A DNA stretch of 64,000 nt, taken from IMG/VR virus record IMGVR_UViG_3300029288_003766, positions 89,787 to 153,786 of that record. One strand, 5' to 3'. The position numbers and the translations under genes were made by a program. Position 1 is the stretch's first letter. Every line of letters starts with the position of its first letter. Origin of the DNA: a virus. Lineage: Duplodnaviria > Heunggongvirae > Uroviricota > Caudoviricetes. Below, in pieces: positions 33,163 to 54,523 of this stretch. The notes under the pieces are model-generated. The model saw only the letters and a list, made by a program, of their open reading frames with translations, was not told where the DNA came from and ran no database searches.

Positions 33163-33878
33163 TGCCTAATCATGTTATTAACATATTAACCTTAGAAGGT
33201 CCTTTGTCTAGGGTGAAAGAGATTTTCCGGGCCATCTCACCAGGTCCCTCCCAAGAAGAATTGGCTACTGAGGTCGATAGTCCTACAGAGCCTGGTGGGC
33301 CTTTATTCAAACCAGCTACGAAAGCTAACCTTGCTAAAAGAAGAGAAGGCCGCTATGAGATTGATTTTGAAAAGATAATACCAATGCCTAAAAACATATA
33401 TAGAGGGGATGTAGGTAGCCGGGAAGAAGAGATATATGGTAGAGATAATTGGTACCATTGGAACACTAACAATTGGGGAACAAAGTGGAACGCCTATGAT
33501 ATGTCAAAGATTGATGACTATACTATGACATTTAACACGGCTTGGGCAATGCCAGAGCGGGTGATCAAAGCATTAAGCAAGATGTTTCCTGATGTTGTGG
33601 TAAAGATAAAATGGGCTGATGAGGATATAGGAAGCAACTGTGGTGAGATTCATTATAGAAATGGTGGAGAGATATTTGAGGATACTCCAGAAGATCGAAG
33701 CAAAGAGGCATATGAATTAGCTTTTGAAATAAACGGTGGAGGGGAATATTATACATATGATAAAGACAAAGGCACATATATTTACAAGGAAAATGAATCA
33801 AGAGTGAGCATATATCAAGCTACAGCGGATTTGAAGAATATTTTTGAGCGAATATCTGATTTGAATGAGGCTAAATGA
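33162..33878 (+). CDS. YubB/DUF1281-like ferredoxin-fold protein with an internal FKPA tag and a vestigial C-terminal leader copy
   Basis: MPNHVINILTLEG...IDFEKIIPMP...NWYHWNTNNWGTKWNAYD...FNTAW; insert GGPLFKPATKANLAKRRE. Confidence 0.75.
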   Translation: MPNHVINILTLEGPLSRVKEIFRAISPGPSQEELATEVDSPTEPGGPLFKPATKANLAKRREGRYEIDFEKIIPMPKNIYRGDVGSREEEIYGRDNWYHWNTNNWGTKWNAYDMSKIDDYTMTFNTAWAMPERVIKALSKMFPDVVVKIKWADEDIGSNCGEIHYRNGGEIFEDTPEDRSKEAYELAFEINGGGEYYTYDKDKGTYIYKENESRVSIYQATADLKNIFERISDLNEAK

Positions 33879-34576
33879 GCATATACCAAGACACCGTAGA
33901 GTTGAAGAAAATGTTTGAACAAGGTGTGATGCCTTATTCTCCCGATGAAAATCTTATCAGCCATGAAACATTGGCTGGTACCTCTTTAAAGAATAAGCCT
34001 ATAGAAACTGATGTTGATGAGGCAGAAGAAATTATATTCAAAGCTGCTAGTGCTGATAACTTGTTTAATCGTGGAATGGGTGGCGATGACACAGTTTCAC
34101 TATATAATGATGGTATTGTTGTTGCAGTAGTAAGAAACGAGAGATTGATTAAATACTATCTTAGGGCAATTCGTCGTAAATATTTTATACCACTAAGTAA
34201 GGAAGAAATATCTAAAATTAATGTACTTCCTACTGATATAAATAGAAAATTTTTTAAATCTTCCGATAAAGAAGCAAAAGCAGTTATTGCACTTCCAATT
34301 AAAATGTTTAAATTAGTTAATGAAGCTGAAGAAGCTAATCCTATTTTTAAAACAGCTTCTAAAGAAAATCTTGCTAAAAGAAAAGAACAGCGTGAGTTGC
34401 GAAGATATTATTTTAGTATAACTTTAAATGGTGTAGGATTTGATCCCGATGAAGCTTGGGAAGAAGCTTTAGAGGGTTTTGCACAAGATCCTGGTGGATT
34501 CGGTCCTGATGAGATAACTAAATCAGTTAAGGTTGACCCAGATACGTTTGAAGATTTGCCTGAAAGAAAAATATGA
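33875..34576 (+). CDS. leader-family protein with two internal tags
   Basis: MSIYQDTVELKKMFE; EAEEIIFKAAS; EANPIFKTASKENLAKR. Confidence 0.8.
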   Translation: MSIYQDTVELKKMFEQGVMPYSPDENLISHETLAGTSLKNKPIETDVDEAEEIIFKAASADNLFNRGMGGDDTVSLYNDGIVVAVVRNERLIKYYLRAIRRKYFIPLSKEEISKINVLPTDINRKFFKSSDKEAKAVIALPIKMFKLVNEAEEANPIFKTASKENLAKRKEQRELRRYYFSITLNGVGFDPDEAWEEALEGFAQDPGGFGPDEITKSVKVDPDTFEDLPERKI

Positions 34577-35028
34577 GCTTAGATAAAGATATAACAGAGA
34601 TTAAGAAAGTATTTAAAGATATTGAAACATACACGCGTTTCCCGGCTCGGTTTATTAAAAATCCGATAAAGGAAAATATTCTTGTGCAAAATGTTATAAG
34701 TAAGTCACATGACTATCCAATTGGTTTATTCTGGTATGACATTGAAAATGATTCATTGGACTATGAGCCATTCGTAAAGGGCATGTACCACACAGATACT
34801 AAAGGGTATGAGAAGAACGCTAAAAATCCTTTAGTGTTAAGGGGCCGAGTATTTAAAGATGGAGATAAAAACTACATCATTGTTTATCCAAGTGACTTCA
34901 AATCATTTAATTTTGCTATACCAAAACTTCCATCGCTACTTAATAAAGTATCAGCAGATTCCAATTTACTCATAAGCGGTATTGTAGATGAGGGTGGGTC
35001 TAATCTCTTAGAGCGAAAGAAAATATGA
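34573..35028 (+). CDS. leader-family protein (leader only)
   Basis: MSLDKDITEIKKVF. Confidence 0.8.
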   Translation: MSLDKDITEIKKVFKDIETYTRFPARFIKNPIKENILVQNVISKSHDYPIGLFWYDIENDSLDYEPFVKGMYHTDTKGYEKNAKNPLVLRGRVFKDGDKNYIIVYPSDFKSFNFAIPKLPSLLNKVSADSNLLISGIVDEGGSNLLERKKI

Positions 35029-35396
35029 GTCTATCTAAAGACATAACAGAGATCAAAAAAGTATTTGAAGCTGATGAACCTATCTTTAAACCAGCCAGTC
35101 CAGAAAATATAGGCAAGAGAAAAGAAGAACGTGAGAGAGAACTGGCTAAACAACCTATTATTCCTGTTGATCAGGAAGCATATGATTTGGATGTGAAGGC
35201 TTGGGAGTCATTAAATAAGTTGAAGCGCAGGATAGAATATCTACGAGCTCATTATAATGTAGACCAATGCAAGTGTAGTTGGGAACGTATAGAACTGGCT
35301 GGTGAGGATATAGAGCAATGTGATATACCAGGAGAGAGTGGATGTGCTGATAGATATTGTTTGCGATGTGGTGGTTGGGTAGATACTACTTATTAA
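35025..35396 (+). CDS. leader-family protein with Cys-rich payload
   Basis: MSLSKDITEIKKVFEADEPIFKPASPENIGKR; CKC...CADRYCLRC. Confidence 0.8.
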   Translation: MSLSKDITEIKKVFEADEPIFKPASPENIGKRKEERERELAKQPIIPVDQEAYDLDVKAWESLNKLKRRIEYLRAHYNVDQCKCSWERIELAGEDIEQCDIPGESGCADRYCLRCGGWVDTTY

Positions 35397-35401
35397 TGAC
35401 T

Positions 35402-35875
35402 ATGAGCCTAGAGACTGACATTACGATTATTAAGCGATTGATTGAAACAAATGAACCTGTGTTCAAGGCGGCTACCCCGGAGCAACAGGCAAAGCGTAAA
35501 GAAGAACTGCTTAGCAGGCCTATGTATAAATATGGGCAAGATCTACTTTGGATGGTGAGGAAAAATTTTCGTAATCTTATTATATTCTCAGAGATAAATG
35601 AAGAGGGAGACTTTGTTATAGAGGGGCGTGTAATTGGTGAGCCACATAAAAAGGTTACGGGCCCAATTTGGCAGGAGGAGAATGGAGTTCGCAAACCTAT
35701 ACGCTATGTACCTTTTGCAATATGGCTACATACAGATGGTATGCTTATGATTCTTACCGATGTGTATAGTTATAAAGAGGGGATACTATGTTCATATGAT
35801 GATTTTAACTGGCCGCCAAAAGAAAATATAATTGATAGGCTTAAAAATTTTATGTCTACTCAGGAGTATAAATGA
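35402..35875 (+). CDS. leader-family protein
   Basis: MSLETDITIIKRLIETNEPVFKAATPEQQAKR (start re-called at 35402). Confidence 0.8.
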   Translation: MSLETDITIIKRLIETNEPVFKAATPEQQAKRKEELLSRPMYKYGQDLLWMVRKNFRNLIIFSEINEEGDFVIEGRVIGEPHKKVTGPIWQEENGVRKPIRYVPFAIWLHTDGMLMILTDVYSYKEGILCSYDDFNWPPKENIIDRLKNFMSTQEYK

Positions 35876-36621
35876 GTTTGGAAAAAGACACATCAGAGAT
35901 CAAGAAGCTTGTAGAGGCTAAACCAATTTTCAAAGCCGCTACATCTCAGCAGATAGCTAAAAGGCCGGCTCCCGCAACACGGCCGTTTTATATTGACTTT
36001 GAAACTTGGGTGATCCAGGCTAAGGATGAGAGTGATGCTTTTTTTAGAGCTCGTAAATATATTGCTGCCGGGGTAGTTCCCGATATTGCACAAGCCTCAG
36101 ATGCCTCTGATATGGATATTACTGATGATCGTCTGGGTGATTTTATAAAACTTAGAGTCTCAGGTAAGCCTGAGTTGGGTGGTATGGGTGAGATCCCAGT
36201 GATTGAAGCTAAGCCAGTATTTAAGGCCGCTAGCTCACATAATCTCGCTAAAAGAAAAGAAGAGCGAGATAAAATTTCTCCAACAGATGATACTGTGATT
36301 ACTATCGAAACTGAGTACGGTATACCCATCAGTTTTCTTATAGAAGAATGTTTGAACAAGACTTATTTAGATGCTCAGGGAGATGAAGAAAAAGTAGAGC
36401 GTATGTTTGTTACATCAGGTTTTCATTTGGTTAAAAGAGAGATCAAATCACTAATTGGTGAACTGCCTATACAGCTATTATTAGTTAAGTTTAATGGTAC
36501 CGACAGCGGTAATTGGTCGCATGGTTTTGCTCTCTATTATGTTAAGTTGATGGGAAAGGTAAAAGACTTGAAACAGATTGCTAACGAGGACCAGAATATG
36601 TACTACGATTGGGAAGAATAA
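35872..36621 (+). CDS. leader-family protein, two tagged units
   Basis: MSLEKDTSEIKKLVEAKPIFKAAT; internal VIEAKPVFKAAS. Confidence 0.8.
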   Translation: MSLEKDTSEIKKLVEAKPIFKAATSQQIAKRPAPATRPFYIDFETWVIQAKDESDAFFRARKYIAAGVVPDIAQASDASDMDITDDRLGDFIKLRVSGKPELGGMGEIPVIEAKPVFKAASSHNLAKRKEERDKISPTDDTVITIETEYGIPISFLIEECLNKTYLDAQGDEEKVERMFVTSGFHLVKREIKSLIGELPIQLLLVKFNGTDSGNWSHGFALYYVKLMGKVKDLKQIANEDQNMYYDWEE

Positions 36622-36947
36622 TGAGCATAGAACGAGACACATCAGAATTGAAGAGAATGTTTGAACAAGAAGTACCGTTTAGCGGTAGCCTTTGGGGGCC
36701 TCACCCTCCAAGTAAAACTATGGTTAAGCAGGATACTGCCAAGAGGATCCCGATTGTTAAAAGCAATTGGGATTATGAGGTTACACCAGCGCCAGTTGGC
36801 AATTATGGCTATACGTTGGCTATTTATAAAAACGGCTACCAGGTATTCAAACAGTCTGGCTTTGGTGCAGAAAGCTCGGCTGCTGTTGCAGCCCGAGATT
36901 ATGTTCTGGGAAAAGAGTTTGGTATAGAACAAGAAGACCAAGAATGA
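36621..36947 (+). CDS. leader-family protein (leader only)
   Basis: MSIERDTSELKRMFEQ (start re-called at 36621). Confidence 0.75.
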   Translation: MSIERDTSELKRMFEQEVPFSGSLWGPHPPSKTMVKQDTAKRIPIVKSNWDYEVTPAPVGNYGYTLAIYKNGYQVFKQSGFGAESSAAVAARDYVLGKEFGIEQEDQE

Positions 36948-37705
36948 GCCTAGAAACCGATATTACAATTATTAAGCGATTAGTTGAGGCCCAGCCGATA
37001 TTCAAATCAGCTAGCCCTCAGCAAATACAGAACAGATATGCTGAGAGGATCAGGCAAGAAGAGGAAGCTAAGAGGAGACGTGAACAAGAACGGTTAGATA
37101 AAGAAGAAAGAGCTGCTAGAGCAAAGGTAGAGGCCAAAGACAAAATGATGAGAGCTTTAAGACTTCTGGGTATGACTAAGGTTGAACATAATCCAGATGA
37201 TTGGACTGTTCGTTGCACAGGTAGTAATCAAGCAGGGGAACAGATATCTATGCAGTTATATGGTGATCGTATAACTGTAAATGGAAGATATCCATATAGC
37301 AGCAGAGAGCATTATACTGGTGATGTATACGACCCTGAGAATAATAACAATAAACTTGAACGGCCGGAGATAACTATCTCAGCTGGGAAAACACCTGAGC
37401 AAATGGTTAGGGATATTCAGCGAAGGTTTACTCCTTTTCATCAGAGATATCATACATTGGCCAAGAAGAAAGCTGAGGCTGATGATGCTTATGAGTATGA
37501 AACTACTTCAAATTTGGCGGCTATAAAAGGTTCTAAGCTTAGCGAGTATGAGGAAAAAGAAAGAAGGATTTCGATTAGTTCTAGAGATGATGGAGTTTAC
37601 GGCCATGTTAAAGTAAGTGGATCTTCTGTAAGTATGGAGATTAATGGCCTTACAGTAGATCAGGCTAAGAGAATAACGGCAGTAATAAAAGGAAGAGTAA
37701 GATGA
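36944..37705 (+). CDS. leader-family protein
   Basis: MSLETDITIIKRLVEAQPIFKSASPQQIQNR. Confidence 0.8.
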   Translation: MSLETDITIIKRLVEAQPIFKSASPQQIQNRYAERIRQEEEAKRRREQERLDKEERAARAKVEAKDKMMRALRLLGMTKVEHNPDDWTVRCTGSNQAGEQISMQLYGDRITVNGRYPYSSREHYTGDVYDPENNNNKLERPEITISAGKTPEQMVRDIQRRFTPFHQRYHTLAKKKAEADDAYEYETTSNLAAIKGSKLSEYEEKERRISISSRDDGVYGHVKVSGSSVSMEINGLTVDQAKRITAVIKGRVR

Positions 37706-37986
37706 GTATATATGATGATACCCAAGCGTTGAAGAAGATATTAGAGAGAGATTCTAATATTGGAGCTATTAAGTTTTCAGATCTGTCTGGTCCAGATAAT
37801 AAAAGCCGGTGTTGGTCAGTTGGTCGCGGGCTGCGTAAGTGTCATAAGTGTGATAAATATGCTAAATGTGATAGTAAGATAGTCAACCCTAAGTATGATG
37901 ATCTGATGGCCAGAAGAGCCGCGGCCTTAGAGAAACATCGCCAAGAGCTTGAAGCCTTGGATAATGAAATTGGCGGGATAGATTAA
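37702..37986 (+). CDS. leader-family protein (leader only) with Cys-rich payload
   Basis: MSIYDDTQALKKILE; CHKCDKYAKC. Confidence 0.75.
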   Translation: MSIYDDTQALKKILERDSNIGAIKFSDLSGPDNKSRCWSVGRGLRKCHKCDKYAKCDSKIVNPKYDDLMARRAAALEKHRQELEALDNEIGGID

Positions 37987-39089
37987 TGAGCCTTGAAGTC
38001 GACATCACAGCTATCAAAACATTATTAGAACAAGAAGAGCTTACATTTAAGCCAGCTACCTGGGGCCAAAGACAGAAGCGACAGGTTTTGGTTAATGATA
38101 ATCTTAAAAAAGAAATGGCTAAATATGGAGCAAGGTTTCCTATAGGTAGTGATGTTGTACTAAGGCTTGTTGATTCAGAAGGAGAACCACGCAGCCTAAT
38201 ACCTAAAGTAGGTAAGATAGATTTTTGGTTTATTGGACGGGATAGGATGGAAAGGGAACAAATGGTTTTTATGGATGTGGCGTGGAATAAAGAAAGTCAG
38301 GTACCGAATAATCCTATCTGGAACTCATCTCTAGGAGCAAATGTATTTGAGTATTGGCTATCTACTGGTGAGCTTATTATAACTCCTCCTAAGGTTCAGG
38401 AAGCCGGACAACCTATATTTAAAGCGGCCACACCCGAGCAGATAGCTAAAAGAGGAAACAATCCTATGCTTGAACCCAAGTGGAGTCCTTGGGGTGAGGT
38501 AGATGGCTGCACGACTATTACAACTGGAGTTTATTGGGTTTCCACTCCTAGCCATGGCGGGCTAATGATAGACAATAGGATTATTGGTGGGCTCCTAACT
38601 CCCGAGGCTATAAAAGAAGGAAGTTATTTTGGGGATAATGAGCGTCATTGGACTACCTATGAAGAAGATGAACAGTGCAATGTTGCTTTCTATGAACTTC
38701 AGGAGCGGGGAGTAAGCTTGATTCGGATATTTGGTAATGTCGACACTAAAGACAGTAGGATAAAAAGTCTTTCTAGGTGGCGCCCTGATTATCTTCGGTC
38801 TAGGGGCATAGAACCAGATCCTAAAGAAGTGGCTCAGCATGACACAATGGCCGAAGAAGATAAGATGCGCAAAGATAAACACCCGGATTTGATCACAGCA
38901 GCTCTAAGAGTAGAAGATAATCCAGATCAAACTCAGGTGTGGACAGCAGATGGGAAAAAATATATTGTTACAGGATATGATAGGGAGTTAAGGAATAGTC
39001 ATATAATATGGAGGGGCCCACGCTTGTCTAATGTTAAGATAATCAAGGATTTAGGTATGCGTGAAAGTAGGATAAATAAAGTATTATGA
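37986..39089 (+). CDS. leader-family protein, two units; second payload DUF7007-like (polyvalent-protein-associated)
   Basis: MSLEVDITAIKTLLE..LTFKPAT; VQEAGQPIFKAATPEQIAKR; WSPWGEVD...GVYWVSTPSHGG...YEEDEQ. Confidence 0.75.
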   Translation: MSLEVDITAIKTLLEQEELTFKPATWGQRQKRQVLVNDNLKKEMAKYGARFPIGSDVVLRLVDSEGEPRSLIPKVGKIDFWFIGRDRMEREQMVFMDVAWNKESQVPNNPIWNSSLGANVFEYWLSTGELIITPPKVQEAGQPIFKAATPEQIAKRGNNPMLEPKWSPWGEVDGCTTITTGVYWVSTPSHGGLMIDNRIIGGLLTPEAIKEGSYFGDNERHWTTYEEDEQCNVAFYELQERGVSLIRIFGNVDTKDSRIKSLSRWRPDYLRSRGIEPDPKEVAQHDTMAEEDKMRKDKHPDLITAALRVEDNPDQTQVWTADGKKYIVTGYDRELRNSHIIWRGPRLSNVKIIKDLGMRESRINKVL

Positions 39090-39409
39090 GTATAGACAAA
39101 GATGCTACAGAGATTAAGAAGTTGGTTGAGGCCATACCTGTGTTCAAAGCTGCGTCTCCAGAGCAGATAGCTGCTAGGCCAAAGGATACTGGTTGGGATT
39201 ATGAAAGCTTAAAAGCTAAACTACCTGATGATGTGCAATATATGCAAGATCTTGGTTTTATGGTAGAAATTGACCCCGGTGATGGTCATAGATTAGGTTT
39301 TTTCATCGGGGAAGATATATTTATGGTTGAAGATCTTCCTCATTTATTTAGAGGCATAATGGAATCAGCTCGTAAGTTATCTGATATGGTTAGAGGTCCA
39401 AAAATATGA
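39086..39409 (+). CDS. leader-family protein
   Basis: MSIDKDATEIKKLVEAIPVFKAASPEQIAARP. Confidence 0.8.
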   Translation: MSIDKDATEIKKLVEAIPVFKAASPEQIAARPKDTGWDYESLKAKLPDDVQYMQDLGFMVEIDPGDGHRLGFFIGEDIFMVEDLPHLFRGIMESARKLSDMVRGPKI

Positions 39410-39807
39410 GTCTAGAAAATGATATCACCCATATTAAAAATTCACTCTCAGAACAAGAAAACCCGGTGTTTAAGGCCGCTAGTCCAGAGCAGCTATCGAA
39501 AAGAGAGGAAGCTCGTAAAGCTGATATCCAGAGGCGGATTGCTGCCAATAAGCTTAAAGGTCCTCCTTGGGTAGGACACGAGAAAGGTATATGTCCACGA
39601 TGTGGTAGTGATAATATAGATTATACTGATACAGACGAAGATAGTAATTTTATATTTCACGAATTTACTTGTAGTGATTGTGGGGCTGATGGATATGAAG
39701 AATCTGTTGTAAGGTATAAAAGTAGTGTTATAGAAGAAGACCCAGATAAGAGAAATGTTTTAACATATGATGAGCACGGTAAACTTTTAAAACCACCATA
39801 CAGATGA
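39406..39807 (+). CDS. leader-family protein with Zn-ribbon payload
   Basis: MSLENDITHIKNSLSEQENPVFKAAS; CPRCGS...CSDCG. Confidence 0.8.
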   Translation: MSLENDITHIKNSLSEQENPVFKAASPEQLSKREEARKADIQRRIAANKLKGPPWVGHEKGICPRCGSDNIDYTDTDEDSNFIFHEFTCSDCGADGYEESVVRYKSSVIEEDPDKRNVLTYDEHGKLLKPPYR

Positions 39808-40145
39808 GCCTAGAAAAAGACATAACGATGATTAAGAGTATGCTTGAAGCTAAACCTATTTTTAAGCCTGCTTCCCAGAAACAAATAGCTAAGAGGCATG
39901 AAGGTACCCCTATTCTTACTGTTATCAGTGTTGCTTATTATGCTAGCGATGACCCATCTGATTTTACGCTTAAAGACATAACTGACCCGCAAGAAATGAA
40001 AGAGATGATTTTAGGCGGTGAAGAAGTATTGATAACGTACATTGATAGTAATGAACAAGGTGGCCGTAATTCTGATGTTCTTTCTGATCTTATGGATTAC
40101 GGTTTTAGAGTAGGTAGAGAAGTAATTTACCCGGAACAAGTATGA
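39804..40145 (+). CDS. leader-family protein
   Basis: MSLEKDITMIKSMLEAKPIFKPASQKQIAKR. Confidence 0.8.
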   Translation: MSLEKDITMIKSMLEAKPIFKPASQKQIAKRHEGTPILTVISVAYYASDDPSDFTLKDITDPQEMKEMILGGEEVLITYIDSNEQGGRNSDVLSDLMDYGFRVGREVIYPEQV

Positions 40146-43100
40146 GTCTAGAAAAAGATATTACACAAATTAAAAAATTGGTAGAAGAGAAACCTATATT
40201 TAAAGCCGCTAGCAAGCAAGAATTGATGCAGAGGAAAAAGATTTGTCCATTTTGCGGAAACGGAATTCTTAAGCTAGCTCCTAAAGATTCAGGGGTGGAC
40301 ATCTATTGCCCGAAGTGCGGGTTTGCTGGGGACAGTTATGATTCTCAAATGGATTTGCTCAGAGAAGCGCAGCCGGTGTTCAAACCAGCATCAGATCAGA
40401 ATATCCAAGCTAGAGAAGAGCAGAAGCGTACTGAACTAGAAAAGAAATTTGGGAGTGTTGAGAAAGTTGCGGAAGGTGGGCAACCTGTTAAATTTGGACC
40501 GGGTGAATACTTCCTTGGTGATATCTGTTATGCATTAGATGATGACATTTATGATAAGGTTTGGGGTAGTATGTTTAACTATGATGATGGGGCCTATAAA
40601 GTCAGAGGCTATGTATTTGCGGTATCTTCCACAGCTTACGGAGATGGGGCTTATTCTGGTACAGATGGAGTAACATATGGAGTAGATGCCGGGGTTATAG
40701 GTATAGTCCCCAAAGAACTTTCACAACTTGATAGTCATGGTGGTAGATGGATCAAAGTTAAAACATCTCTTACTTTCCAAGCTGGAGACGGAATATTTAA
40801 TATTTATATAGATAGGGGAGAAATTGTTGAAATAGATACAAAAAATGATCCAAATAGAGAAGAAGATGAAACAACTGATGAATCTAAGATGACAGAGGAA
40901 AAAGATGTAGTATTCAAAGCTGCTAGTAAGAAACAAATAAATAAGCGCCCTAAGCCTGAGGCATTTTTTACATATCATGTGTTTAGTTGGGATGATGAAA
41001 ATAATCATACAGATCAGTGGATTGATAGTTTACCTGAGGCCGAGGAATATGCTAAGAGGTTGGTGCGTGCCGGTTGGAGTAGGGTTAGGATAGAAGAGAT
41101 TGCGGAAGATGATGATGATGGAGAAATAATTTGGTTTGGCGGGGATGAAGACTCTCCTGATTATAGTTTGAAGGATGCTGAAACAGATATAAAGGCAGGG
41201 GCCTCGGTAGATGCCAGCCTTATTGAAGCAAATAATCCTATATTCAAAGCGGCTTCAAAGAGTCAGCTTGCTAAAAGAAAAGAAGAGTATGACCGGGGTT
41301 ATGCCCAGCGTTTAAAAGCTACGGAGACAATGAACAAAATGTTAGAGATGCAGCCTGAGAATGCTGAACCTTTTTTGTCAATATATTTTGATGTAATAGA
41401 GGATGATGAGAGGAAAGATGTTTTTAGAGAGTTTGTTGATGTTCTTTACAAGGAAGATAAAATAAAGCTTACAGATTTATATAATAAGTATATTAGAAAT
41501 GCTCCTGAAGGTGAGGCAAATGAAATTGAGTTCTGTGAAAAGGCTGCTGAAAGAATTGCTGCAGCTGGCTTGTTTGTGTATAACGGAGATACATATTTTG
41601 AAGTGTACACTCCTGAGGAAATAGCTAACGCTATTATCTATGAATCTAATGAACCAGTGTTTAAGGCAGCTACTCCCCAACAAATAGCAGCTAGACCTCA
41701 ACAAGCTCCGAGAAAGAGAAAGCTAGAAGATCTTTACCGGATAGCAGGAGAAATTGGTTTACCCATAGATAAGACTCAATTGTTTGTATCTTACATAACT
41801 CGGCGTTGGCCTGATGTGGATTATGGATATGCTAAGGAATGGGCGAAGAGATTTTTGAAAGGTGATGAATGGGTAGCCTCAGATCTTAGTGGTCGGAGTC
41901 TCCTTAGAAGTTTAAAGCCTGATCTGTACCCTGATGACCTTTACGGAAGTATGAGAAGAAGCACATTTGAATCAGAAAATCCTGTGTTTAAACCGGCTAC
42001 TCCTGAACAGATAGCGGCCCGTCCTAACCTTGGTTACAAAATTCCATATGAAGAATGGTATGAGGTCTATGAGGACAAAGGTGATGATGGTGGGACAGAA
42101 ACTTGGCACTCAACTCAGACTTACCGCCATGCATTAGAAATTAAATCAGTTCTTGAGAAAGATTGGCCAGAAAAAGAGTTTGGTATAGATAAGTGGCGTA
42201 GGGCGCCTAATGGTGATTCAGAACCTATTGATGATTGGAGACCTGAACAGGAACCTGTAGTAGAAGCTAAGCCTATATTCAAAGCTGCTTCTCAGGAACA
42301 GATTGCAAGTAGACCAAAACCAGCACCTGCATATAAAATAGTTGAGTATCCTACGGGTAGAATTGTAAAAGTCAGTAAATCAGCTCTCGAAGTTTTAAAA
42401 TTATCAGCTTTGGTTAGTTGGGATGAAGAAGGAGAAGGTCAGTGGCAATTTGATGATAGTGATTGGGAGAAGATAGATCAATATCTTAGAGGTAATCCTA
42501 TTGTAGAAGCTAAACCTATATTTAAGGCAGCTACTCCAGAGCAGATTTCTAAAAGACATCAACTACGACCACTAAGTGATGACCGAGATGATTACTTGGG
42601 TAGGAAGATACAAGATCTTAATGATGAAGATGTAAATCATATAAGTGATCTTGAATTGAACTCCTGTGATAGATGTGGAAGGATAGAATTTTCTAATGAT
42701 CTATGTTGGGTTGAATTCTACTATGAGGGTCAGGAAATACCAAAGAAGATGCGTAAGTACACAGCCATTTGTCAAAATTGCCAGAGTGATCTGTTGTCCG
42801 ATGAAGTAAATGAAGCTAAGCCTATATTCAAGGCGGCTACTGCAGCAAATCTTAGAGCTCGTAACTCAAGACCTGAGAAGATCCCACCTCCAGGCGGCTT
42901 TGAATATAGATTTCTGAGGTTCATAGAAGATCCAGATCCTGAGGCTAAAACTTGGAAACTTACCGGTATGGGATCTTATATTGATATGGATGATAGTGAG
43001 ATTTGGTTTCATACTGATGATGATATAGATATCAGTATTTATATAGATACCAATTCGGCCATCAATGATCATCTTAATAGAGATGATGCATTAACTAAAG

Positions 43101-43594
43101 AATGTCAAGAACATTTTGAGAAGAGTGGAGCAATAGGTTTTGCAGGAAAGATATCTGAGTGGGTAAAATCACGAGGCTGGGAAGTTATAGAATCTGCTAA
43201 TACATCTTCCTTTGACAATTCCTATTTCTTAGGTTCAGTATTTGAGTATACAACATTTGAAGACGCATACGATGATAGGGGTATTGTTATCATGATGTAT
43301 CTGGGCGGGGATGTTAGAGGAAATTATGCTTATCCAATTGTATATTTTGGGGATGTGGAGGATTTTTTTAGTTCTCACTGGATAAGTGATTATAAGGAAG
43401 ATACAGCCAACTTTTTTGGATATCAATATTACGATGATCTTATTTGGGATATTAAAAAATATCGCGGCTCAATCCCTGAGGGTGAAAATCGTCCTCATGA
43501 AGTAGAATCTCCTGGCCAGATAAGATGGAAAATGAATAATGAGAATCCTGCTGAGACTTATACTGAGGCAAAAGAAGTTGTGAGTGTGAAATAA
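40142..43594 (+). CDS. leader-family polyprotein with nine tagged units (1150 aa)
   Basis: Leader plus nine hydrophobic-x-E...[PD][IV]FK[AP]A[ST] repeats separating unrelated small domains. Confidence 0.9.
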   Translation: MSLEKDITQIKKLVEEKPIFKAASKQELMQRKKICPFCGNGILKLAPKDSGVDIYCPKCGFAGDSYDSQMDLLREAQPVFKPASDQNIQAREEQKRTELEKKFGSVEKVAEGGQPVKFGPGEYFLGDICYALDDDIYDKVWGSMFNYDDGAYKVRGYVFAVSSTAYGDGAYSGTDGVTYGVDAGVIGIVPKELSQLDSHGGRWIKVKTSLTFQAGDGIFNIYIDRGEIVEIDTKNDPNREEDETTDESKMTEEKDVVFKAASKKQINKRPKPEAFFTYHVFSWDDENNHTDQWIDSLPEAEEYAKRLVRAGWSRVRIEEIAEDDDDGEIIWFGGDEDSPDYSLKDAETDIKAGASVDASLIEANNPIFKAASKSQLAKRKEEYDRGYAQRLKATETMNKMLEMQPENAEPFLSIYFDVIEDDERKDVFREFVDVLYKEDKIKLTDLYNKYIRNAPEGEANEIEFCEKAAERIAAAGLFVYNGDTYFEVYTPEEIANAIIYESNEPVFKAATPQQIAARPQQAPRKRKLEDLYRIAGEIGLPIDKTQLFVSYITRRWPDVDYGYAKEWAKRFLKGDEWVASDLSGRSLLRSLKPDLYPDDLYGSMRRSTFESENPVFKPATPEQIAARPNLGYKIPYEEWYEVYEDKGDDGGTETWHSTQTYRHALEIKSVLEKDWPEKEFGIDKWRRAPNGDSEPIDDWRPEQEPVVEAKPIFKAASQEQIASRPKPAPAYKIVEYPTGRIVKVSKSALEVLKLSALVSWDEEGEGQWQFDDSDWEKIDQYLRGNPIVEAKPIFKAATPEQISKRHQLRPLSDDRDDYLGRKIQDLNDEDVNHISDLELNSCDRCGRIEFSNDLCWVEFYYEGQEIPKKMRKYTAICQNCQSDLLSDEVNEAKPIFKAATAANLRARNSRPEKIPPPGGFEYRFLRFIEDPDPEAKTWKLTGMGSYIDMDDSEIWFHTDDDIDISIYIDTNSAINDHLNRDDALTKECQEHFEKSGAIGFAGKISEWVKSRGWEVIESANTSSFDNSYFLGSVFEYTTFEDAYDDRGIVIMMYLGGDVRGNYAYPIVYFGDVEDFFSSHWISDYKEDTANFFGYQYYDDLIWDIKKYRGSIPEGENRPHEVESPGQIRWKMNNENPAETYTEAKEVVSVK

Positions 43595-43965
43595 TGGACC
43601 TTAGTTCAGAGATATACCAAACTTTGTTGTTAGAACCTGGAGTTGCAAATATGAGTGATGAAAAACATTATATTGATGAGATTGGCACAGATGTGATTGT
43701 GGATTGCGGGCAAGATATCAGCACAGCTACTGTCCATAAATTAGAAGTTAGAAAGCCCGATGGTACGACAGATGAGTGGGATGCTGAACCCTATACGATA
43801 GATGATGAACCAAACTACCTTATATATACTACAATAAGTGGGGACTTCGATCAGGCTGGTTTATATTCTATCCAGTCTTATATTGAAATGGATGGTTGGG
43901 AAGGAAGAGGACAAACAGTGACTTTTGAAGTGTTTAATAACTATGATCTGGACCCCGAAATATGA
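43594..43965 (+). CDS. acidic beta-rich protein, BppU-N-like / possible virion protein (no leader)
   Basis: DCGQDISTATVHKLEVRKPDG...YTTISGDFDQAGLYSIQSYIE pattern. Confidence 0.5.
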   Translation: MDLSSEIYQTLLLEPGVANMSDEKHYIDEIGTDVIVDCGQDISTATVHKLEVRKPDGTTDEWDAEPYTIDDEPNYLIYTTISGDFDQAGLYSIQSYIEMDGWEGRGQTVTFEVFNNYDLDPEI

Positions 43966-44318
43966 GCTTAGAGAAAGACACAGTAGAGATTAAGAAATTG
44001 TTTGAGCAGGATGATCTTTTATTCAAACCGGCATTACCTGAGAATCTTGCTAAGAGAATAGAGCAACGTGTTAGTAACCGTAAGCCTACTGAGGATTTTT
44101 GCCCTCATTGTAAAGCTGATTTACGTAGTGAAACTATTGGGGTGTATTCAAAAGAAATAGAGGAGTCTACTGTTGGAATATATTGGAATTCTAGATCTGG
44201 TATGTGGGAATGGGGTGATAGGAATTATGGTAATGGTGAAATTACGGGTTTTTTCTGTGGCAAATGTGATGGAAAAGTGAAGAGAGAAAAAGACTTTGAC
44301 CTTGAGGATTCATTATGA
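43962..44318 (+). CDS. leader-family protein with Zn-ribbon payload
   Basis: MSLEKDTVEIKKLFEQDDLLFKPALPENLAKR; CPHC...CGKC. Confidence 0.8.
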   Translation: MSLEKDTVEIKKLFEQDDLLFKPALPENLAKRIEQRVSNRKPTEDFCPHCKADLRSETIGVYSKEIEESTVGIYWNSRSGMWEWGDRNYGNGEITGFFCGKCDGKVKREKDFDLEDSL

Positions 44319-44725
44319 GCCTAGAAAAAGATATTACGATTATTAAGCAACTAGTGGAAGCACAGCCGGTATTCAAAGCGGCTAGTTCTGAGAATCTTGC
44401 TAAGAGAGAGGAGCAACTTCTTAATAGTGACAGACTACAGAGAGAAGCATTATCAAACGCACTAGACAAAAAGGATCCAGATATTATATGGTTGGTTCAT
44501 TATATTGGTCATCATTATAATGGTTGGGAAAAAGATGAGGTTAACAAACTTTCCCTTCCAGCAAATGTTTATGAAGATGGTGTTGTTGCTTATACATGTG
44601 ATGGAAACGCATATATTGTTACAGGATATGGTGAAGAGTATGACGCAGCATTCCTTCGGGGGGAGCATGAACTACCTCATTTATCTAATGTTACAGTAAT
44701 AAAAAAGTTAAATAGGAAAAGATGA
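44315..44725 (+). CDS. leader-family protein; payload paralogous to the C-terminus of 37986-39089
   Basis: MSLEKDITIIKQLVEAQPVFKAAS; DGNAYIVTGY...HLSNVTVIKKL. Confidence 0.8.
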   Translation: MSLEKDITIIKQLVEAQPVFKAASSENLAKREEQLLNSDRLQREALSNALDKKDPDIIWLVHYIGHHYNGWEKDEVNKLSLPANVYEDGVVAYTCDGNAYIVTGYGEEYDAAFLRGEHELPHLSNVTVIKKLNRKR

Positions 44726-45312
44726 GCCTAGAAAAAGATATTACGATGATTAAGCAACTAGTTGAGCAGAATGATAATCTAGTGTTCAAACCAGCTTCAC
44801 CTGAGAATATTACTAATCGTGAAGAAATAATGAGGCAGAAAGAAGAAGATGCAAAGAAAGCACACGCTGCGGCATTATATGACAATGCTGAGATGCACCT
44901 TCCCGGTTGTGTTGAAAAGTTGAGACAAAGATTTGGTAATGAAGCTTTGGTCCAGACAGCAATTGCTTATGCTGATAGTGAGGAACCTCAAATGTTACTC
45001 GGGGTGTCAAAAACACTAAGTATACGTGATATAGATTGGGATGGAGTGTGGACAGATGCTAAGACTTTTTTAGATCAATGCAAGATAGTTGGGGGGTATA
45101 ACGGGTTTAATATTGATGTTGCTAATGATTTAGTGTTTTACTTCAAAGGTAAGGAGTTTAGACTAGCTAGAGAAGGTTCAGTGGCTGTTTATATTAGGCC
45201 TGTTGAACAACAGAAGTTTAATTATCTGAATAGTGAGACAGGTGCCCGAACTTATAAATTTGATGAAGCAAGTCTTGAGGGTGGAAACACAGTACGATTA
45301 TGGTGGGATTAG
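44722..45312 (+). CDS. leader-family protein; payload paralogous to the C-terminal domain of 56437-60228
   Basis: MSLEKDITMIKQLVEQNDNLVFKPAS; TAIAYADS...FRLAREGS...RLWWD. Confidence 0.8.
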   Translation: MSLEKDITMIKQLVEQNDNLVFKPASPENITNREEIMRQKEEDAKKAHAAALYDNAEMHLPGCVEKLRQRFGNEALVQTAIAYADSEEPQMLLGVSKTLSIRDIDWDGVWTDAKTFLDQCKIVGGYNGFNIDVANDLVFYFKGKEFRLAREGSVAVYIRPVEQQKFNYLNSETGARTYKFDEASLEGGNTVRLWWD

Positions 45313-45315
45313 ACT

Positions 45316-45849
45316 ATGAGCCTAGAGAACGATATTACACAAATTAAAACTTTAATGGAAACCAAAGATGAGTTTAAAGACTATGAAGATCTTAGCCCCG
45401 AGAGGCAGATAAAGAAACACATCGAGCAGGTAGAAACTTTTATGAACAAACTGTCTGCAGAGATCAAAGAGCGGGGCAGGAAGCACGATGCCAGCAAGCT
45501 GGGTGATCAGGAGCTTCCTAAGTGGGAAGATTATCTTCCCAAACTAGCTGGTATGAAATATGGAACGCTTGATTATAAGAAGGCCTCGGAAGCTATGGGA
45601 GATGTTATAAAAATACACCACAAGGCCAACCGTCACCATCCTGAATATTTTAGTGATGGTATGAAAGGTATGAACCTTGTAGATCTTTGCGAGTTATGCG
45701 CGGATTGGGCAAGTGCTGCTCTTAGAACTAATGGCGGTAATATTGAAAAGTCAATTGATGATAATAAGAAAAGATTTAATTATGATAATACTTTGGCGTC
45801 TATTTTGAAAAATACAGTTAAATTATTTAAGGAAAATAATAATGAGTGA
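45316..45849 (+). CDS. leader-family protein with DUF5662-like (HD-related) payload
   Basis: MSLENDITQIKTLME; HDASKL...HHKANRHHPEYF...MNLVDLCELCADW. Confidence 0.75.
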   Translation: MSLENDITQIKTLMETKDEFKDYEDLSPERQIKKHIEQVETFMNKLSAEIKERGRKHDASKLGDQELPKWEDYLPKLAGMKYGTLDYKKASEAMGDVIKIHHKANRHHPEYFSDGMKGMNLVDLCELCADWASAALRTNGGNIEKSIDDNKKRFNYDNTLASILKNTVKLFKENNNE

Positions 45850-46687
45850 ATTATGTAGCTTTGGATGCGGAAATATTGCTGTAGTCCAATTCAAGAGCAG
45901 TGGTAAATTTTGTTGTAGTAAGAGTGCTAATTCTTGCTTCGCTCAGCGTCAGAAGAATAGTTTAGGAAATAAAGATCGTAAGTTTTCTAAAGAATCTATA
46001 GAGAAAATGAAGCAAACTAAAGCCGAACACCCTCAGAAACCTTGGAACAAAGGTCTGACTAAGGAAACTGACGAACGGGTTAGAAGGTATGGAGAAAACG
46101 TTAGTAAATCGTTACAGGCAAATGATAAAATTAGAGGAGAGAATGCTTCTAATTATATAGATGGAAGGTCTTATAAACCTAATTTTTGTGTAGATTGCGG
46201 TGATCAAATTGAACCAAGAACAGAAAGATGTATGGAATGTAAAGCAATACATCAATCAAAATTAATGAAAAATGGTGCGCATAAATTAGATTGTAGTTGT
46301 CCATTTTGTAGAACTAAGCGTGGTGAATGTTGGGGGGAAGAAAATTCGCAGTATATAGATGGGAGAACACCTTTACGTAATTTGATAAGAAATTTAGATG
46401 AATCTTCTCAATGGCGTGAGGAAGTTTTTAAGCGAGATAACTATATTTGTCAAGAATGCTATAGATGTGGTATTAAATTAAATGCTCACCATATAAAAGA
46501 ATTTAATAAAATCTTAACTGAATTCTTACAGGAATATTCTCAGTTTAGTCCAATAGAAGATAAAGAAACGCTAGTTCGCTTGGCACTAATGTATGAACCT
46601 TTTTGGGAATTAAGCAACGGCAAGACGCTATGTGAAGAATGTCATGATAAAACAAAAGGTCGAAAGAAGCTTTTAGAAAAGGAATAA
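45842..46687 (+). mobile_element. free-standing HNH endonuclease with NUMOD-type DNA-binding modules
   Basis: WNKGLTKETDERV; WREEVFKRDNYICQEC...NAHHIK...NGKTLCEECH. Confidence 0.85.
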
Positions 46688-46744
46688 GAAACGGAATGGT
46701 TCCGGTTCAAGTAACAAGCAGTATAACAGAAGGAGTAACAAGAA

Positions 46745-46990
46745 ATGGCAAGAGGTAAAGTGAAATGGTTCAGTAATCAGAAGGGCTACGGGTTCATAAC
46801 CGCGGCAGACGGGAAAGACGTTTTTGTGCATTTCAGTGCAATCCAGGGAGAAGGATATAAGAGTTTAACAGAAGGACAGGAAGTGGAGTTTGAGGTTACG
46901 GATGGTCTAAAAGGTCAACAAGCTGTTAACGTTAGAAAGATTGTGCCTATAAACGAAGTAAAGGTAGAAACGCCTGCTGTACAGGCCTAG
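46745..46990 (+). CDS. cspA: cold-shock protein
   Basis: [16 protein letters not shown] (RNP1), [17 protein letters not shown] (RNP2). Confidence 0.95.
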
Positions 46991-46994
46991 AATA

Positions 46995-47019
46995 CCCTTA
47001 TTTGGGGCGTAACCAGGCC
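46995..47019 (+). repeat. 25-bp direct repeat, copy 2, downstream of csp
   Basis: Identical to 16824-16848. Confidence 0.9.
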
Positions 47020-47047
47020 AAGGTTCAATTATAAGGAGATAAAAGGT

Positions 47048-47332
47048 ATGTTGAGTTGCCCAAGGTGTAAAAAGTCGCTGGTAGCAATGGATAACCATCA
47101 GTTTGCTTATTGCCCAAAGAGGATTATTGCTACTAAATCCGGACCACCTTATGATCGTAAGATTAGGGTGGAAACAGCTCCTGATTCGGGGTGTGGAGTG
47201 CTAGTGCAAATACCTCAAAGTGAACATGACTATTTGCATGACTTGGATCTCAAGTATAGGCCTTGGGAAGATAAGACTGAGTGCAGCGGGGTTAAGAACG
47301 ATCTCAATTCTCGTACAACTGTTAATGGATAA
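47048..47332 (+). CDS. hypothetical Zn-binding protein
   Basis: CPRC...CP...CG. Confidence 0.55.
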   Translation: MLSCPRCKKSLVAMDNHQFAYCPKRIIATKSGPPYDRKIRVETAPDSGCGVLVQIPQSEHDYLHDLDLKYRPWEDKTECSGVKNDLNSRTTVNG

Positions 47333-47403
47333 TTTTCCACAAAGGGAGCTCTTGAAGATTTTCTTTAACGCTGTACTCGGTCAACTTATAATTAGAGGAA
47401 TAA

Positions 47404-48108
47404 ATGCTATGTAAATGTGGATGTGGAAAATATACGAAAGAAGAACATAATGAATATTGTCGTGGGCATCATCCGCACTCACGTATTAATACAGCGGGGG
47501 AAAATAACGGAATGTGGGGTAAACATCCTACTAAAGAAACGAAAAATAAATGGAAAAACAGGTCGGTTTGGAACAAAGGGTTAACTAAAGAAACAGATGA
47601 GCGTGTAGCTAAATATGCTATATCACGTAAACATCCTATTTCTTGTAAGTGCCCTTGCTGTAAAGGTGAGCGCGGAGAATTAACAAAAGAAGAAAAAAAT
47701 AAATGCGGTCAGAGAAGTGGTGAAGGTAGACGTGGTAAACATCTATCTGATACTCATATTCGCAACGTTTTAAGAGCTGGGTGTGAACACCCTAATAAGT
47801 TTGAAACTAACGCTTTGCATTATATAAATACTATTTATAATAATAAATTTACGTATACCGGTGATGGTTCTTTAATTATTAATCACAGATCAGCAGACGC
47901 ATATTCAAAAGAATTAAATACAATAGCACTTTTCCATGGTGTGTACTGGCATTTAAGAAAAAAAGGATTGGATATTACAGAAGAGAACAAACGGGTTGTG
48001 GAAAAAGTAGATTCTCTTCCTTTTACATCAGCTGGCTACAAAGTAATTTTTATTTGGGAAGATGAACTATACAAATTATTGGAGAAGAAATGTCAGATGA
48101 CAAATTAG
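47404..48108 (+). mobile_element. putative homing endonuclease: NUMOD modules plus Vsr/DUF559-like PD-(D/E)xK domain
   Basis: CKCGCG, WNKGLTKETDERV, FHGVYWH, GYKVIFIWEDE. Confidence 0.75.
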
Positions 48109-48458
48109 AGAGTTTTGGTTCATTACTTGAGAGAACTCTAATAAACAGAGGCCAAGAAGAGATTAAGCCAGTAGACTCTCCTATTGAACTTAGCGATTCC
48201 GAACGAAGCGAGATTTTAGAACGTTTATCACAAACGCGGGATAAAGGTCCGTTACAACCCCCTTCTAGCGGACCAGAAAGTGGAAGTGATCAAGATTTGT
48301 CCACTGCTTCGTTCGGCTCGCTTTTAGAAAAAACCATAGAACTGCAAGAGAAATTGAAGAAGGATGAATCCTCAGAAAATGATGAGATCCGTGAAGCGGT
48401 AATAGAAAAGTCCAACATTGATATGGTCAATGATTTACTTAAACGGTTTATAAGATGA
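48090..48458 (+). CDS. acidic hypothetical protein with internal repeat SFGSLLE[RK]T
   Basis: ESFGSLLERTL and ASFGSLLEKTI. Confidence 0.6.
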   Translation: MSDDKLESFGSLLERTLINRGQEEIKPVDSPIELSDSERSEILERLSQTRDKGPLQPPSSGPESGSDQDLSTASFGSLLEKTIELQEKLKKDESSENDEIREAVIEKSNIDMVNDLLKRFIR

Positions 48459-48877
48459 GCTTAGAGAAAGATATAACAGAAGTTAGGAGATTGGTTGAAC
48501 AGGATGAACCAGTGTTCAAGGCCGCTAGTCCCGAGCAGATAGATAAACGTAGAACAGAAGCCGATAAAAAACATATAGCTTGGGTAAGATCTCTGCCGAG
48601 AGTTAAACTTTACGCATTATGCTCGGATCAGATGGATGCTTGGGTTGATAAAAATGTTGGGGAGTTTTATTATGATGATGAAAATGATGGTTATTTTGAT
48701 GACGCGGGAGTTGAGGTGACTAGAGATGATATAAGAGATGAGTACGCAGAGGCTAACTCTGTTAGTATGCACGGTAGCTGTGAGATATTCGACCGTGAAT
48801 CTCTTGAGTCATTGGGAAAATCTATAAATGACGTGCTTATGGTAGCACCTCTGCCTCCTGGAAGGAATAGACCATAA
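48455..48877 (+). CDS. leader-family protein, acidic payload
   Basis: MSLEKDITEVRRLVEQDEPVFKAASPEQIDKR. Confidence 0.8.
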   Translation: MSLEKDITEVRRLVEQDEPVFKAASPEQIDKRRTEADKKHIAWVRSLPRVKLYALCSDQMDAWVDKNVGEFYYDDENDGYFDDAGVEVTRDDIRDEYAEANSVSMHGSCEIFDRESLESLGKSINDVLMVAPLPPGRNRP

Positions 48878-48888
48878 AAAGTATAACT

Positions 48889-49782
48889 ATGAGCTTAGAA
48901 AAAGACATTACAATTATAAAAGAGTTGGTGGAAGCAAATCCAGTATTCAAAGCCGCTAGCCCAGCTAATCTTAATAAGAGGCAAGAGTATATGGAGATAG
49001 AGCAGGCTAAAGAAAGAGAACGTCTTGCGATAGAACGAGCCAAAGAAGAAAAAAGACTAGCAAGAGAACGAGCTGATCGGTTTAAGGAGTTAGGACCAAA
49101 ATTGTACAACATAATGCAGCTTATGCCGACTGTTAAAAGTCTTGATGACGAATATATAGAGTTATCAGATAGTGAGTTCAAAGGTAACTATGGTAAGATT
49201 GGAGAATATGACCATCCTACGCAGGTTTCCTTTAATATAAAAATTTATGGGCAAAGTATTCCTGATGATGTCCGTGATAAGTTGGAGAAGTATGGTCTCG
49301 AGAACTCTGCCTATGAGATTATGAATGAAGATATGAGTTTATATGCTACAGATTTCTTTGATAATCTCCAAAGTCAATATTCTTTTATAAGCAATTGGTA
49401 TCAGGAGGGAAGATCAAGCGGCTGGGTAGTCTTTGAGATTGATGATGTGGCAGGAACAGATGATGCGCAGCAATTGATGTATTATTTTCAGGATGCTGAC
49501 ACTGCTGTAAGAAATACAGAAGATTGGAATGATAATGATTTTGAAGCTGCATACATCCAATTAAAATCATATGCAGTAAATCTGAAAAAGCGTATTAGTA
49601 ATTTAGAGAAAATCGAAAAGAAGATTCTGAAAGGTAAAAGAGATCTTATAGCTTGGCAAAGTTCAAAAGAATATTGGGATACATTTTTTTCTAATTATGA
49701 AGATGATATTGCAGAACAGGACGCAAAGGAACAAACTGAAAGAGAAGAGCAAATACAATCCGAAGTTGGGGAGGCTGGATAA
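48889..49782 (+). CDS. leader-family protein; payload paralogous to first unit of 51205-52764
   Basis: MSLEKDITIIKELVEANPVFKAAS; YQEGRSSGWV. Confidence 0.8.
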   Translation: MSLEKDITIIKELVEANPVFKAASPANLNKRQEYMEIEQAKERERLAIERAKEEKRLARERADRFKELGPKLYNIMQLMPTVKSLDDEYIELSDSEFKGNYGKIGEYDHPTQVSFNIKIYGQSIPDDVRDKLEKYGLENSAYEIMNEDMSLYATDFFDNLQSQYSFISNWYQEGRSSGWVVFEIDDVAGTDDAQQLMYYFQDADTAVRNTEDWNDNDFEAAYIQLKSYAVNLKKRISNLEKIEKKILKGKRDLIAWQSSKEYWDTFFSNYEDDIAEQDAKEQTEREEQIQSEVGEAG

Positions 49783-49783
49783 A

Positions 49784-52764: not shown

Positions 52765-53300
52765 GTATTATAGTCAGAAAATACTGGAGCTAGCCAGAGG
52801 TGAGCATACTGGCAAAGATTGTATTTTGGTCACTGATGCTATGCAAGCATACGTCCAGAGAAACTATAGGAAGGTCGACGAGATATTAGAAAAGTTGAGT
52901 GATGACTATCAATTATTAGAGAAATTGATTGAGAAGCTAAAAGGAAAGTCAACATATACGGGATTACGCCAACTGCTTGAGGGCAAAGACCAGTCAAATG
53001 AGCAGGCAATTATATCAACTAGTTCCTTGATCTGCCACGCGGCTATAGAAATGAAAGAGCATAAGGAATACAAAAGGCTGCTTCCGGGTCTCTATAAAAA
53101 GTTAGGGGTATTGATCAATGGAAACAGCTAACGTTATTAAATGTGATAAGTGTGGTAGTGAAAATTTGGAGAAGACAATATGGAGATCTCCAAGATCATA
53201 CTTTTCTAGGGAAGTTGAAATAACGATGGCTAAATATAATTTAAACCAGATTCCTGTATATAAATGTTTAGATTGCGGTTCTGAGATGCGAAGATGGTAA
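52751..53300 (+). other. two hypothetical genes without leader (52751-53131 helical; 53118-53300 Zn ribbon)
   Basis: ORF track; CDKCGS...CLDCG in the second. Confidence 0.6.
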
Positions 53301-53364
53301 AAAAGAATAAGAAGAAGCTGATCAAAAAGAAGAGAGTCCCAACGATTAAATGGGGAGAGGTTAA

Positions 53365-54519: not shown

Positions 54520-54523
54520 GATT

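Follow-up and report, generated by a model that had tools for sequence, protein, structure and literature searches.

A nine-unit polyprotein in the head gene module

We analysed 64,000 nucleotides of DNA (the window, numbered from its first letter) from IMGVR_UViG_3300029288_003766, a 214,968-bp IMG/VR record of an uncultured tailed phage (Caudoviricetes) that has no close relative among the phages in GenBank. The gene in question is an open reading frame (ORF) on the plus strand at 40142..43594, stop codon included, which is open throughout and encodes a protein of 1150 residues. A preliminary description, made from the letters alone, had proposed that this protein is a polyprotein of nine units, each carrying a short F-K-[AP]-A-[ST] tag and each preceded by a cleavage site of the kind used by gp21, the phage T4 prohead protease. 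We found the frame, the nine tags and the quoted flanking residues to be as described, with the F of the tag at residues 20, 80, 258, 368, 507, 616, 713, 794 and 896. The two-unit versions reported at 33875, 35872, 37986, 51205 and 54524 are all real.

The gene lies in the middle of a 27-kb run of plus-strand genes within the head module, whose order is portal, gene run, protease-scaffold and major capsid protein (MCP). The run (33162..60228, plus strand) is an array of putative cargo cassettes containing 24 genes that open with a common leader; 16 of them have both leader and tag, and six carry internal tags. The polyprotein gene is joined to both of its neighbours by 4-nt overlaps of the ATGA type, and the protease is encoded 17 kb downstream of it.

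Cuts after every junction Glu would divide the protein into a 15-residue leader and nine units of 60, 177, 110, 139, 109, 98, 81, 102 and 259 residues, in that order. The leader (MSLEKDITQIKKLVE, residues 1-15, 40142..40186) was delimited in an alignment of the 16 leader-plus-tag genes; it resembles a capsid-targeting sequence (CTS) and ends in L-V-E. Unit 1, which follows from 40187 (residues 16-75, 40187..40366), combines a tag with a four-cysteine zinc ribbon that weakly matches Lar_restr_allev (E 0.0067, below the Pfam cut-off). In unit 2 (residues 76-252, 40367..40897) the tag precedes a beta domain containing YFLGDICY (phrog_20074), and in unit 3 (residues 253-362, 40898..41227) an acidic domain. 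Units 4 (residues 363-501, 41228..41644), 5 (502-610, 41645..41971), 6 (611-708, 41972..42265) and 7 (709-789, 42266..42508) come next. Unit 8 (residues 790-891, 42509..42814) has a cysteine-rich, zinc-ribbon-like domain behind its tag, and unit 9 (residues 892-1150, 42815..43591) an alpha/beta domain of 230 residues. All are read from the plus strand. Seven units are net acidic (-2 to -21) and two are zinc-ribbon-like.

The claim that the tags separate unrelated domains of about 60-250 residues was borne out: with the tags removed, none of the units resembled another (all E > 0.6) or any other ORF in the genome. A Pfam scan of the polyprotein gave no family at E <= 0.01 apart from the sub-threshold Lar zinc ribbon, and a PHROG scan gave only phrog_20074, a family of unknown function. 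Units 2 and 9 were modelled with AlphaFold2, as had been suggested, and both yielded confident models. Unit 2 had a predicted local distance difference test score (pLDDT) of 93, with the tag running into a long N-terminal helix. For unit 9, which was folded without the whole-protein alignment (its unit-9 fragments were misplaced), pLDDT was 84 and the tag region formed a short helix of low confidence (54-57) ahead of the confident domain. Such a low-confidence tag and linker is, in the model, the pattern expected of an exposed joint. The fold comparison was less productive: Foldseek searches of the PDB with either model returned no match at E <= 0.001, VIA-align reached a Z of no more than 3.1 for unit 2, with no clear PDB fold match, all ESM-Atlas shape matches to unit 9 had template-modelling scores below 0.31, and the Atlas feature search was empty. 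The folds of units 2 and 9 are accordingly left without assignment, which does not in itself prove either fold to be new.

Leader, tag and junction glutamate

The leader MSLEKDITxIKxLVE, or a close variant of it, opens the 24 genes between portal and protease; elsewhere in the genome it was found in one gene only, just after that of the MCP. In the alignment of the 16 leader-plus-tag genes, M1, S2, D6 and E15 are invariant. The tag proved to be longer than the core first described. It spans 14 residues, P-[IV]-F-K-[AP]-A-[ST]-x-x-[QN]-[IL]-x-x-R, and the genome contains it 38 times; F, K, A and R never vary. As a peptide with a free N-terminus it is represented by AKPIFKAASPEQIAKRPKP. At the conserved positions Phe is encoded by TTC or TTT, Lys by AAA or AAG, Ala by each of its four codons and Ser by codons of both families; on average, the tag copies are only 59% identical in nucleotides. 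Since synonymous codons vary freely at this low identity, selection acts on the peptide and not on a DNA repeat. Leader and tag are independent modules, for the leader occurs without the tag in seven genes and the tag without the leader in eight.

At the nine junctions of the polyprotein, residues P3-P1 (the end of the leader and of units 1 to 8) read LVE, LRE, MTE, LIE, IYE, TFE, VVE, IVE and VNE, and each tag lies 3-6 residues past the Glu. Glu is present before all 30 window tags that have polypeptide upstream of them, whether leader or unit, but before only one of the eight tags at native N-termini (Fisher p = 6e-7), a contrast which suggests that Glu is kept only where the upstream polypeptide can be removed. 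The preliminary description had counted a lack of conservation of the junction glutamates in homologues as refuting its reading, and this refutation fails. Among internal joints of this genome and its relatives, Glu was retained in 59 of 61, P3 being V, L or I in 55 cases and P1' being Ala in 33; the Glu-to-tag spacing was short and steady (3-7 residues). A further 64 internal joints came from a leader-plus-tag profile search, and 60 of these have Glu (P3 is L, I, V or M in 49 of 64). Taken over this genome and its relatives, about 90% of junctions have L, I, V or M at P3. Of the leader, internal joints retain only the final three residues, followed by the tag. They contain neither Met nor start codon, so separate translation of the units is impossible. 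The predicted cut would leave the tag 3-6 residues from the new N-terminus, close to where it stands in the tag-only genes.

Two other readings of the joints were considered and rejected. Ribosome skipping of the 2A type at E-x-N-P joints fails as N-P occurs in few joints only and the 2A mechanism is eukaryotic. Read-through fusion of neighbouring genes fails as an origin of the present joints, since the first 11-12 leader residues are missing from them.

A candidate enzyme is encoded at 60639..62939 (plus strand). Its product of 766 residues combines an S77 prohead protease (residues 1 to ~230) with a charged, coiled-coil-like C-terminal part resembling a scaffold, as identified by Pfam, PHROG and profile searches: PF03420 (S77) matched with 31.5 bits against a cut-off of 27, and phrog_207 with an E of 9e-25. 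With the single protease sequence, phmmer missed gp21 among the PDB sequences and a profile was needed; the profile of 43 protease homologues matched T4 gp21 (5JBL) with an E of 3.7e-6. His78 (in EHP) and Ser133 (in GVSTRA) are invariant in the 43 homologues. They align with the EHP and GVS(T)R motifs, opposite two Ala positions in the 5JBL chain, which we take to be engineered inactive residues. T4 gp21 cleaves after L/I-x-E, and the first bond mapped was Glu-Ala (PMC9026906). The junctions of the polyprotein fit this rule at the level of sequence, being [LIV]-x-E followed usually by Ala, and in this respect the label "gp21-type" was apt. When the binding of a junction peptide of 36 residues to the protease N-domain was modelled, without controls, the score was 0.00 against a mark of 0.32, a value that speaks neither for nor against binding.

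The MCP gene (gp23 family; phrog_138, E 6e-34) follows at 62964..64000 on the plus strand and continues to 64436 outside the window. The N-terminus of its product, MSKELNSLVE, is a shortened cargo leader ending in L-V-E, and a second candidate cleavage site, I-F-E73/T (the slash marking the bond), lies ahead of the conserved core.

Tag-first genes, relatives and shuffled units

Eight small genes outside the head module open with the tag (M-x(1-6)-P-I-F-K-A-A-T...) and have no leader; seven of the eight lack the Glu. These native N-terminal copies are the nearest to the consensus. Three of the genes are adjacent to one another and to terL (22457..23076, plus strand) and have neither leader nor cleavage Glu; after the tag they continue with fragments of the MCP corresponding to its residues 267-313, 18-61 (66% identical) and 435-463. 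The second has the tag in place of the leader-like N-terminus of the MCP. A fourth minigene with the tag only is found in the window at 27581..27826 (plus strand). Outside the window, genome positions 24549-24848 on the minus strand encode a protein of 99 residues with a consensus tag, an I-V-V-E/G site and two hydrophobic segments, which by eye look like a membrane anchor. Speculatively, this protein could tether a tag-binding assembly component to the membrane, from which the protease would then release it. Two more tag-only ORFs, at genome 64227-64400 and 64565-64822 (locus L015 3228-3823), have a DnaC-like loader on one side and, immediately downstream, a DnaB-like helicase, which matches its PHROG profile without the first ~186 positions.

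The tag follows the junction Glu, but the leaderless tag genes, the tagless leader genes and the tagless MCP site together indicate that it is more than the P' half of such a site.

Relatives were recovered by an exhaustive HMMER search, by a search with the MCP and with the leader-plus-tag profile. By contrast, locus searches that used the polyprotein or the protease as a single sequence gave no relatives, an exact degenerate DNA pattern for PIFKAA[ST]PEQIAKR had no match in IMG/VR, and a word-indexed search of 5.8 billion proteins for full-length matches of similar length returned none beyond the polyprotein itself. The HMMER search gave 1480 matches, mostly to unit 2 and unit 9, and the unit 2 domain (phrog_20074) is widespread as a stand-alone protein of 125-250 residues. 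Four related contigs, with identities of 69-82%, came from the search with the MCP. The closest (G001, MCP 82% identical) encodes polyproteins with five, six and three tags. Of the nine units, its syntenic polyprotein has just 4, 5 and 9, which keep their order among otherwise different units, and the next gene is the same leaderless one of 111-123 residues. Matches to the leader-plus-tag profile comprised 75 proteins, unannotated or annotated as hypothetical, on contigs of up to 216 kb; among them were four chains with six tags and one with nine (P0196, 1364 residues). Polyproteins with three, six or nine tags recur in metagenomic proteins. Lineages at a greater distance use other dialects of the tag, such as E-K-D-I-F-K-G-A-S, E-D-V-F-K-G-P-S/D and E-A-x-x-P-F-Q-P-A-S, all of which preserve Glu, Phe and the distal Arg.

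A comparison of unit number and order across related genomes, as had been proposed, revealed separate leader-plus-tag genes, other unit orders and polyproteins of three to nine tags within the clade. Unit 9 occurs behind leader and tag as a separate gene (P0005, locus L005). A two-unit protein (P0020, locus L003: leader, tag, a domain X, joint, tag, unit 3) has unit 3 in second place, and a homologue of unit 3 is also found inside P0004. Units 4 and 6 both have homologues in P0007, and unit 4 also in P0073; unit 7 has a 63% identical stretch in P0017. P0007 and P0017, too, have the leader and the tag. In the prohead protease of a relative, a metagenomic protein of 1309 residues (P0062), a domain of the unit-9 type (residues 407-604) stands between the protease (1-243) and a scaffold-like C-terminus (1099-1280). 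Read from its sequence, this protein places the unit-9 domain physically inside a prohead core protein. Several other protease homologues have 1100-1300 residues, some with zinc-ribbon insertions. Judged from these comparisons, the evolutionary unit is the cleavage Glu with the tag, a short linker and a domain, and it is fused, split and reordered among related phages.

Several neighbouring genes were also recorded. Upstream of the array, the T4-type portal gene (gp20 family, Pfam Portal_T4; 29203..33162, plus strand) is interrupted by an intein (Intein_splicing, E 5e-40) and an HNH_3 endonuclease. Directly after the polyprotein comes the leaderless gene at 43594-43965, which encodes 123 residues; its counterpart at the same position in G001 is 60% identical, and a paralogue lies at genome 200527-200844 (49%). 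Pfam families in the array are limited to domains of unknown function, DUF1281_C (an Api92-like ferredoxin-like domain), DUF7007 and DUF5662, in the genes at 33162-33878, 37986-39089 and 45316-45849. A leaderless gene resembling HNH homing endonucleases is found within the array at 55625-56440, and the equivalent arrays of G001 and a second locus (L002) contain GIY-YIG or other endonuclease-like genes. These endonuclease-like genes are possible drivers of cassette turnover.

A probable head-targeted cargo polyprotein and its alternatives

We consider it probable that the 1150-residue protein is targeted to the head and that the S77 protease cuts it at each of the nine joints. The 15-residue leader would bring the whole chain into the prohead core, as the CTS does in T4. 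The gp21-type serine protease, itself fused to scaffold, would then cleave after the Glu of each [LIV]-x-E joint, which would remove the leader and free nine small proteins, mostly acidic, each beginning 3-5 residues ahead of its P-[IV]-F-K-A-A-[ST]...R tag. The tag would remain on the mature protein as a second, independent signal. We conjecture that its docking on a prohead or capsid component would keep or position the acidic cargo once leader and scaffold are gone; the cargo would presumably be ejected along with the DNA.

Several points weigh against this reading. Cleavage and packaging are steps that we infer, for this phage and for its relatives alike. The [LIV]-x-E motif is present at seven of the nine polyprotein junctions, P3 being M or T at the other two. 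It occurs 21 times in the protein against a chance expectation of 19.5, so that the tripeptide alone is insufficient to define the sites, and the 14 copies outside the junctions would have to be protected by folding. The specificity of gp21 is usually explained in just this way, with other sites hidden in folded domains. The likely MCP maturation site, I-F-E73/T, has no tag. Fourteen conserved residues on the P' side are unprecedented among gp21-type sites, which shows selection beyond cleavage, and a role confined to the inside of the capsid agrees poorly with the presence of tag-only genes in replication and other modules.

The conservation of the tag, far in excess of what a gp21-type site needs, could mean that the packaged chain stays whole, the tags serving as multivalent docking linkers to capsid or scaffold subunits and the Glu being part of the docking motif. 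The tag also works at native N-termini where nothing is cleaved, and certain large proteins enter the virion without processing, N4 vRNAP being an example cited in PMC5512222. We nevertheless think this unlikely: Glu and a hydrophobic P3 are dispensable for the tag, being absent from seven of eight native copies and present in nearly all of ~125 joints, and the same domain has its own removable leader in relatives, so the separate mature unit is evidently functional. Alternatively, the tag could be an extended P' recognition element, or exosite, that makes cuts by the head protease efficient at inter-domain joints. It always trails the Glu at a short distance (3-7 residues), and some specificity past [LIV]-x-E is needed given the 14 other tripeptides. 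This explanation is distinctly unlikely, as it does not account for tag-first genes with nothing to cleave, for the tagless leader genes and MCP site, or for native N-terminal copies being nearest to the consensus. It is hardly credible that the repeats have no function in the protein and are just recombination joints in the DNA or artefacts of assembly. Conserved leaders do flank the polymorphic internal-protein loci of T-even phages, but the nucleotide divergence of the tag and the free synonymous variation at its invariant residues effectively refute the idea, and the architecture recurs in independent metagenomes in the dialects FKAAS, FKGAS, FKGP[SD], FKPAS and FQPAS.

A serious alternative for the tag leaves cleavage as proposed and has the tag act only after ejection, in the infected cell, as a short linear motif that a host factor or an early factor of the phage would recognise, for localisation, turnover or chaperoning. 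It would explain why cell-made proteins of other modules carry the tag at their own N-terminus: eight tag-only genes lie outside the head module, two of them just ahead of the DnaB-like helicase, three by terL and one encoding the protein with two putative transmembrane segments. The seven tagless leader genes show in addition that packaging does not need the tag. We regard this as a minority possibility. The MCP-fragment minigenes and the membrane anchor with its V-V-E/G site suit assembly equally well or better, and internal proteins encoded at a distance from the head genes are nothing unusual in T4. Docking of the tag on a prohead or capsid component, for loading or retaining acidic cargo after loss of leader and scaffold, is the conjecture we favour, since both the MCP fragments and the membrane anchor make sense in the context of assembly. 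More tentatively still than cleavage itself, these observations may be united in a two-signal cargo code, which we hold to be possible though short of probable: a removable CTS-like leader would load, and a persistent N-proximal tag (x-K-P-I-F-K-A-A-S/T...R), needing a nearby free N-terminus that is either native or made by the protease, would dock on a prohead, capsid or membrane-assembly component.

The closest known counterpart to the proposed cleavage and packaging is the set of internal proteins of T4. IPI, IPII, IPIII and Alt, like the proteins described here, are unrelated, fast-evolving proteins with a short leader ending in hydrophobic-x-Glu, and in both cases the cargo is expected to leave with the DNA (PMC9026906, PMC3012670). 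In both, too, the S77 protease gene lies beside those for scaffold and MCP, and cuts fall, or are predicted to fall, after Glu, often at Glu-Ala. The T4 CTS, MKTYQEFIAE, has 10 residues whereas the present leader has 15; their sequences are unrelated and only the terminal hydrophobic-x-Glu is common to them, so we regard the leader as an analogue, not demonstrably a homologue, of the T4 CTS. Other differences are larger. T4 has a handful of such genes, whereas here a single 27-kb array holds 24 with a leader. As many as nine cargo domains follow one another in one polypeptide, each behind its own putative cut site, and a 14-residue tag, predicted to be kept on every mature product, occurs also on leaderless proteins. 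The cargo is mostly acidic, unlike the basic T4 internal proteins.

In encapsulins, whose shells have the HK97 fold, the cargo-loading peptide is usually C-terminal and binds the shell interior directly, with no protease involved. They offer an analogy for the tag alone, a short conserved peptide being in both cases the sole element common to unrelated cargo. The phiKZ-like phages (phiKZ gp175, 201phi2-1, and SPN3US gp245 with substrates such as gp53 and gp54) share with the present phage a gp21-related protease and several Glu sites per head protein, and package dozens of head proteins with their DNA (PMC10052503; PMC9026906). Their sites follow the motif A/S/G-x-E, and repeated cutting breaks up long N-terminal propeptides, which are lost, so that one mature fragment remains (PMC10052503). 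That motif does not describe the joints found here, where P3 is V, L or I in 55 of 59 internal joints; moreover, each segment here is a distinct domain that has homologues as separate genes, each with the tag. The preliminary description had also likened the protein to polyvalent proteins, phage polypeptides of two to fifteen unrelated domains that are predicted to be packaged and injected and that are shuffled (PMC5512222; Iyer, Burroughs, Anand, de Souza, Aravind 2017). The likeness holds for the architecture, in which many unrelated domains are joined in one chain beside portal and head genes. It does not extend to domain content, as none of the signature domains (MPTase/zincin peptidase, ART, ParB-like, PBECR, MuF) was found in the polyprotein by Pfam scan. 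Processing of polyvalent proteins has been proposed to be autoproteolytic, by the MPTase domain at unknown sites, in contrast to the explicit, repeated joints found here, which match a separate head protease. Full-text searches on prohead proteases, polyproteins and CTSs returned no published description of jointed cargo polyproteins of this kind. The arrangement would extend the T4 system of CTS and internal proteins, with the conserved post-cleavage tag as its most original and least understood feature.

If the polyprotein is cleaved as proposed, the protein sets that giant T4-related phages deliver into the host would be far larger, and more modular, than the three or four internal proteins of the textbooks. 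A simple grammar, in which a leader is followed by repeats of cut site, tag and domain, would make their cargo readable from metagenomes. This genome would then yield ~38 mature products, mostly acidic and almost all of unknown function, which would be natural candidates for anti-defence or host-takeover factors, and T4-style delivery engineering would gain a natural model for the loading of several proteins encoded by a single gene. Were the two-signal code also to hold, one leader would load stoichiometric sets of up to nine tagged effectors, and the tag would in addition recruit non-cargo proteins, such as those of the MCP-fragment minigenes and the membrane anchor, to the assembling head. 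The persistence of the tag would point to an interaction in head assembly or early infection.

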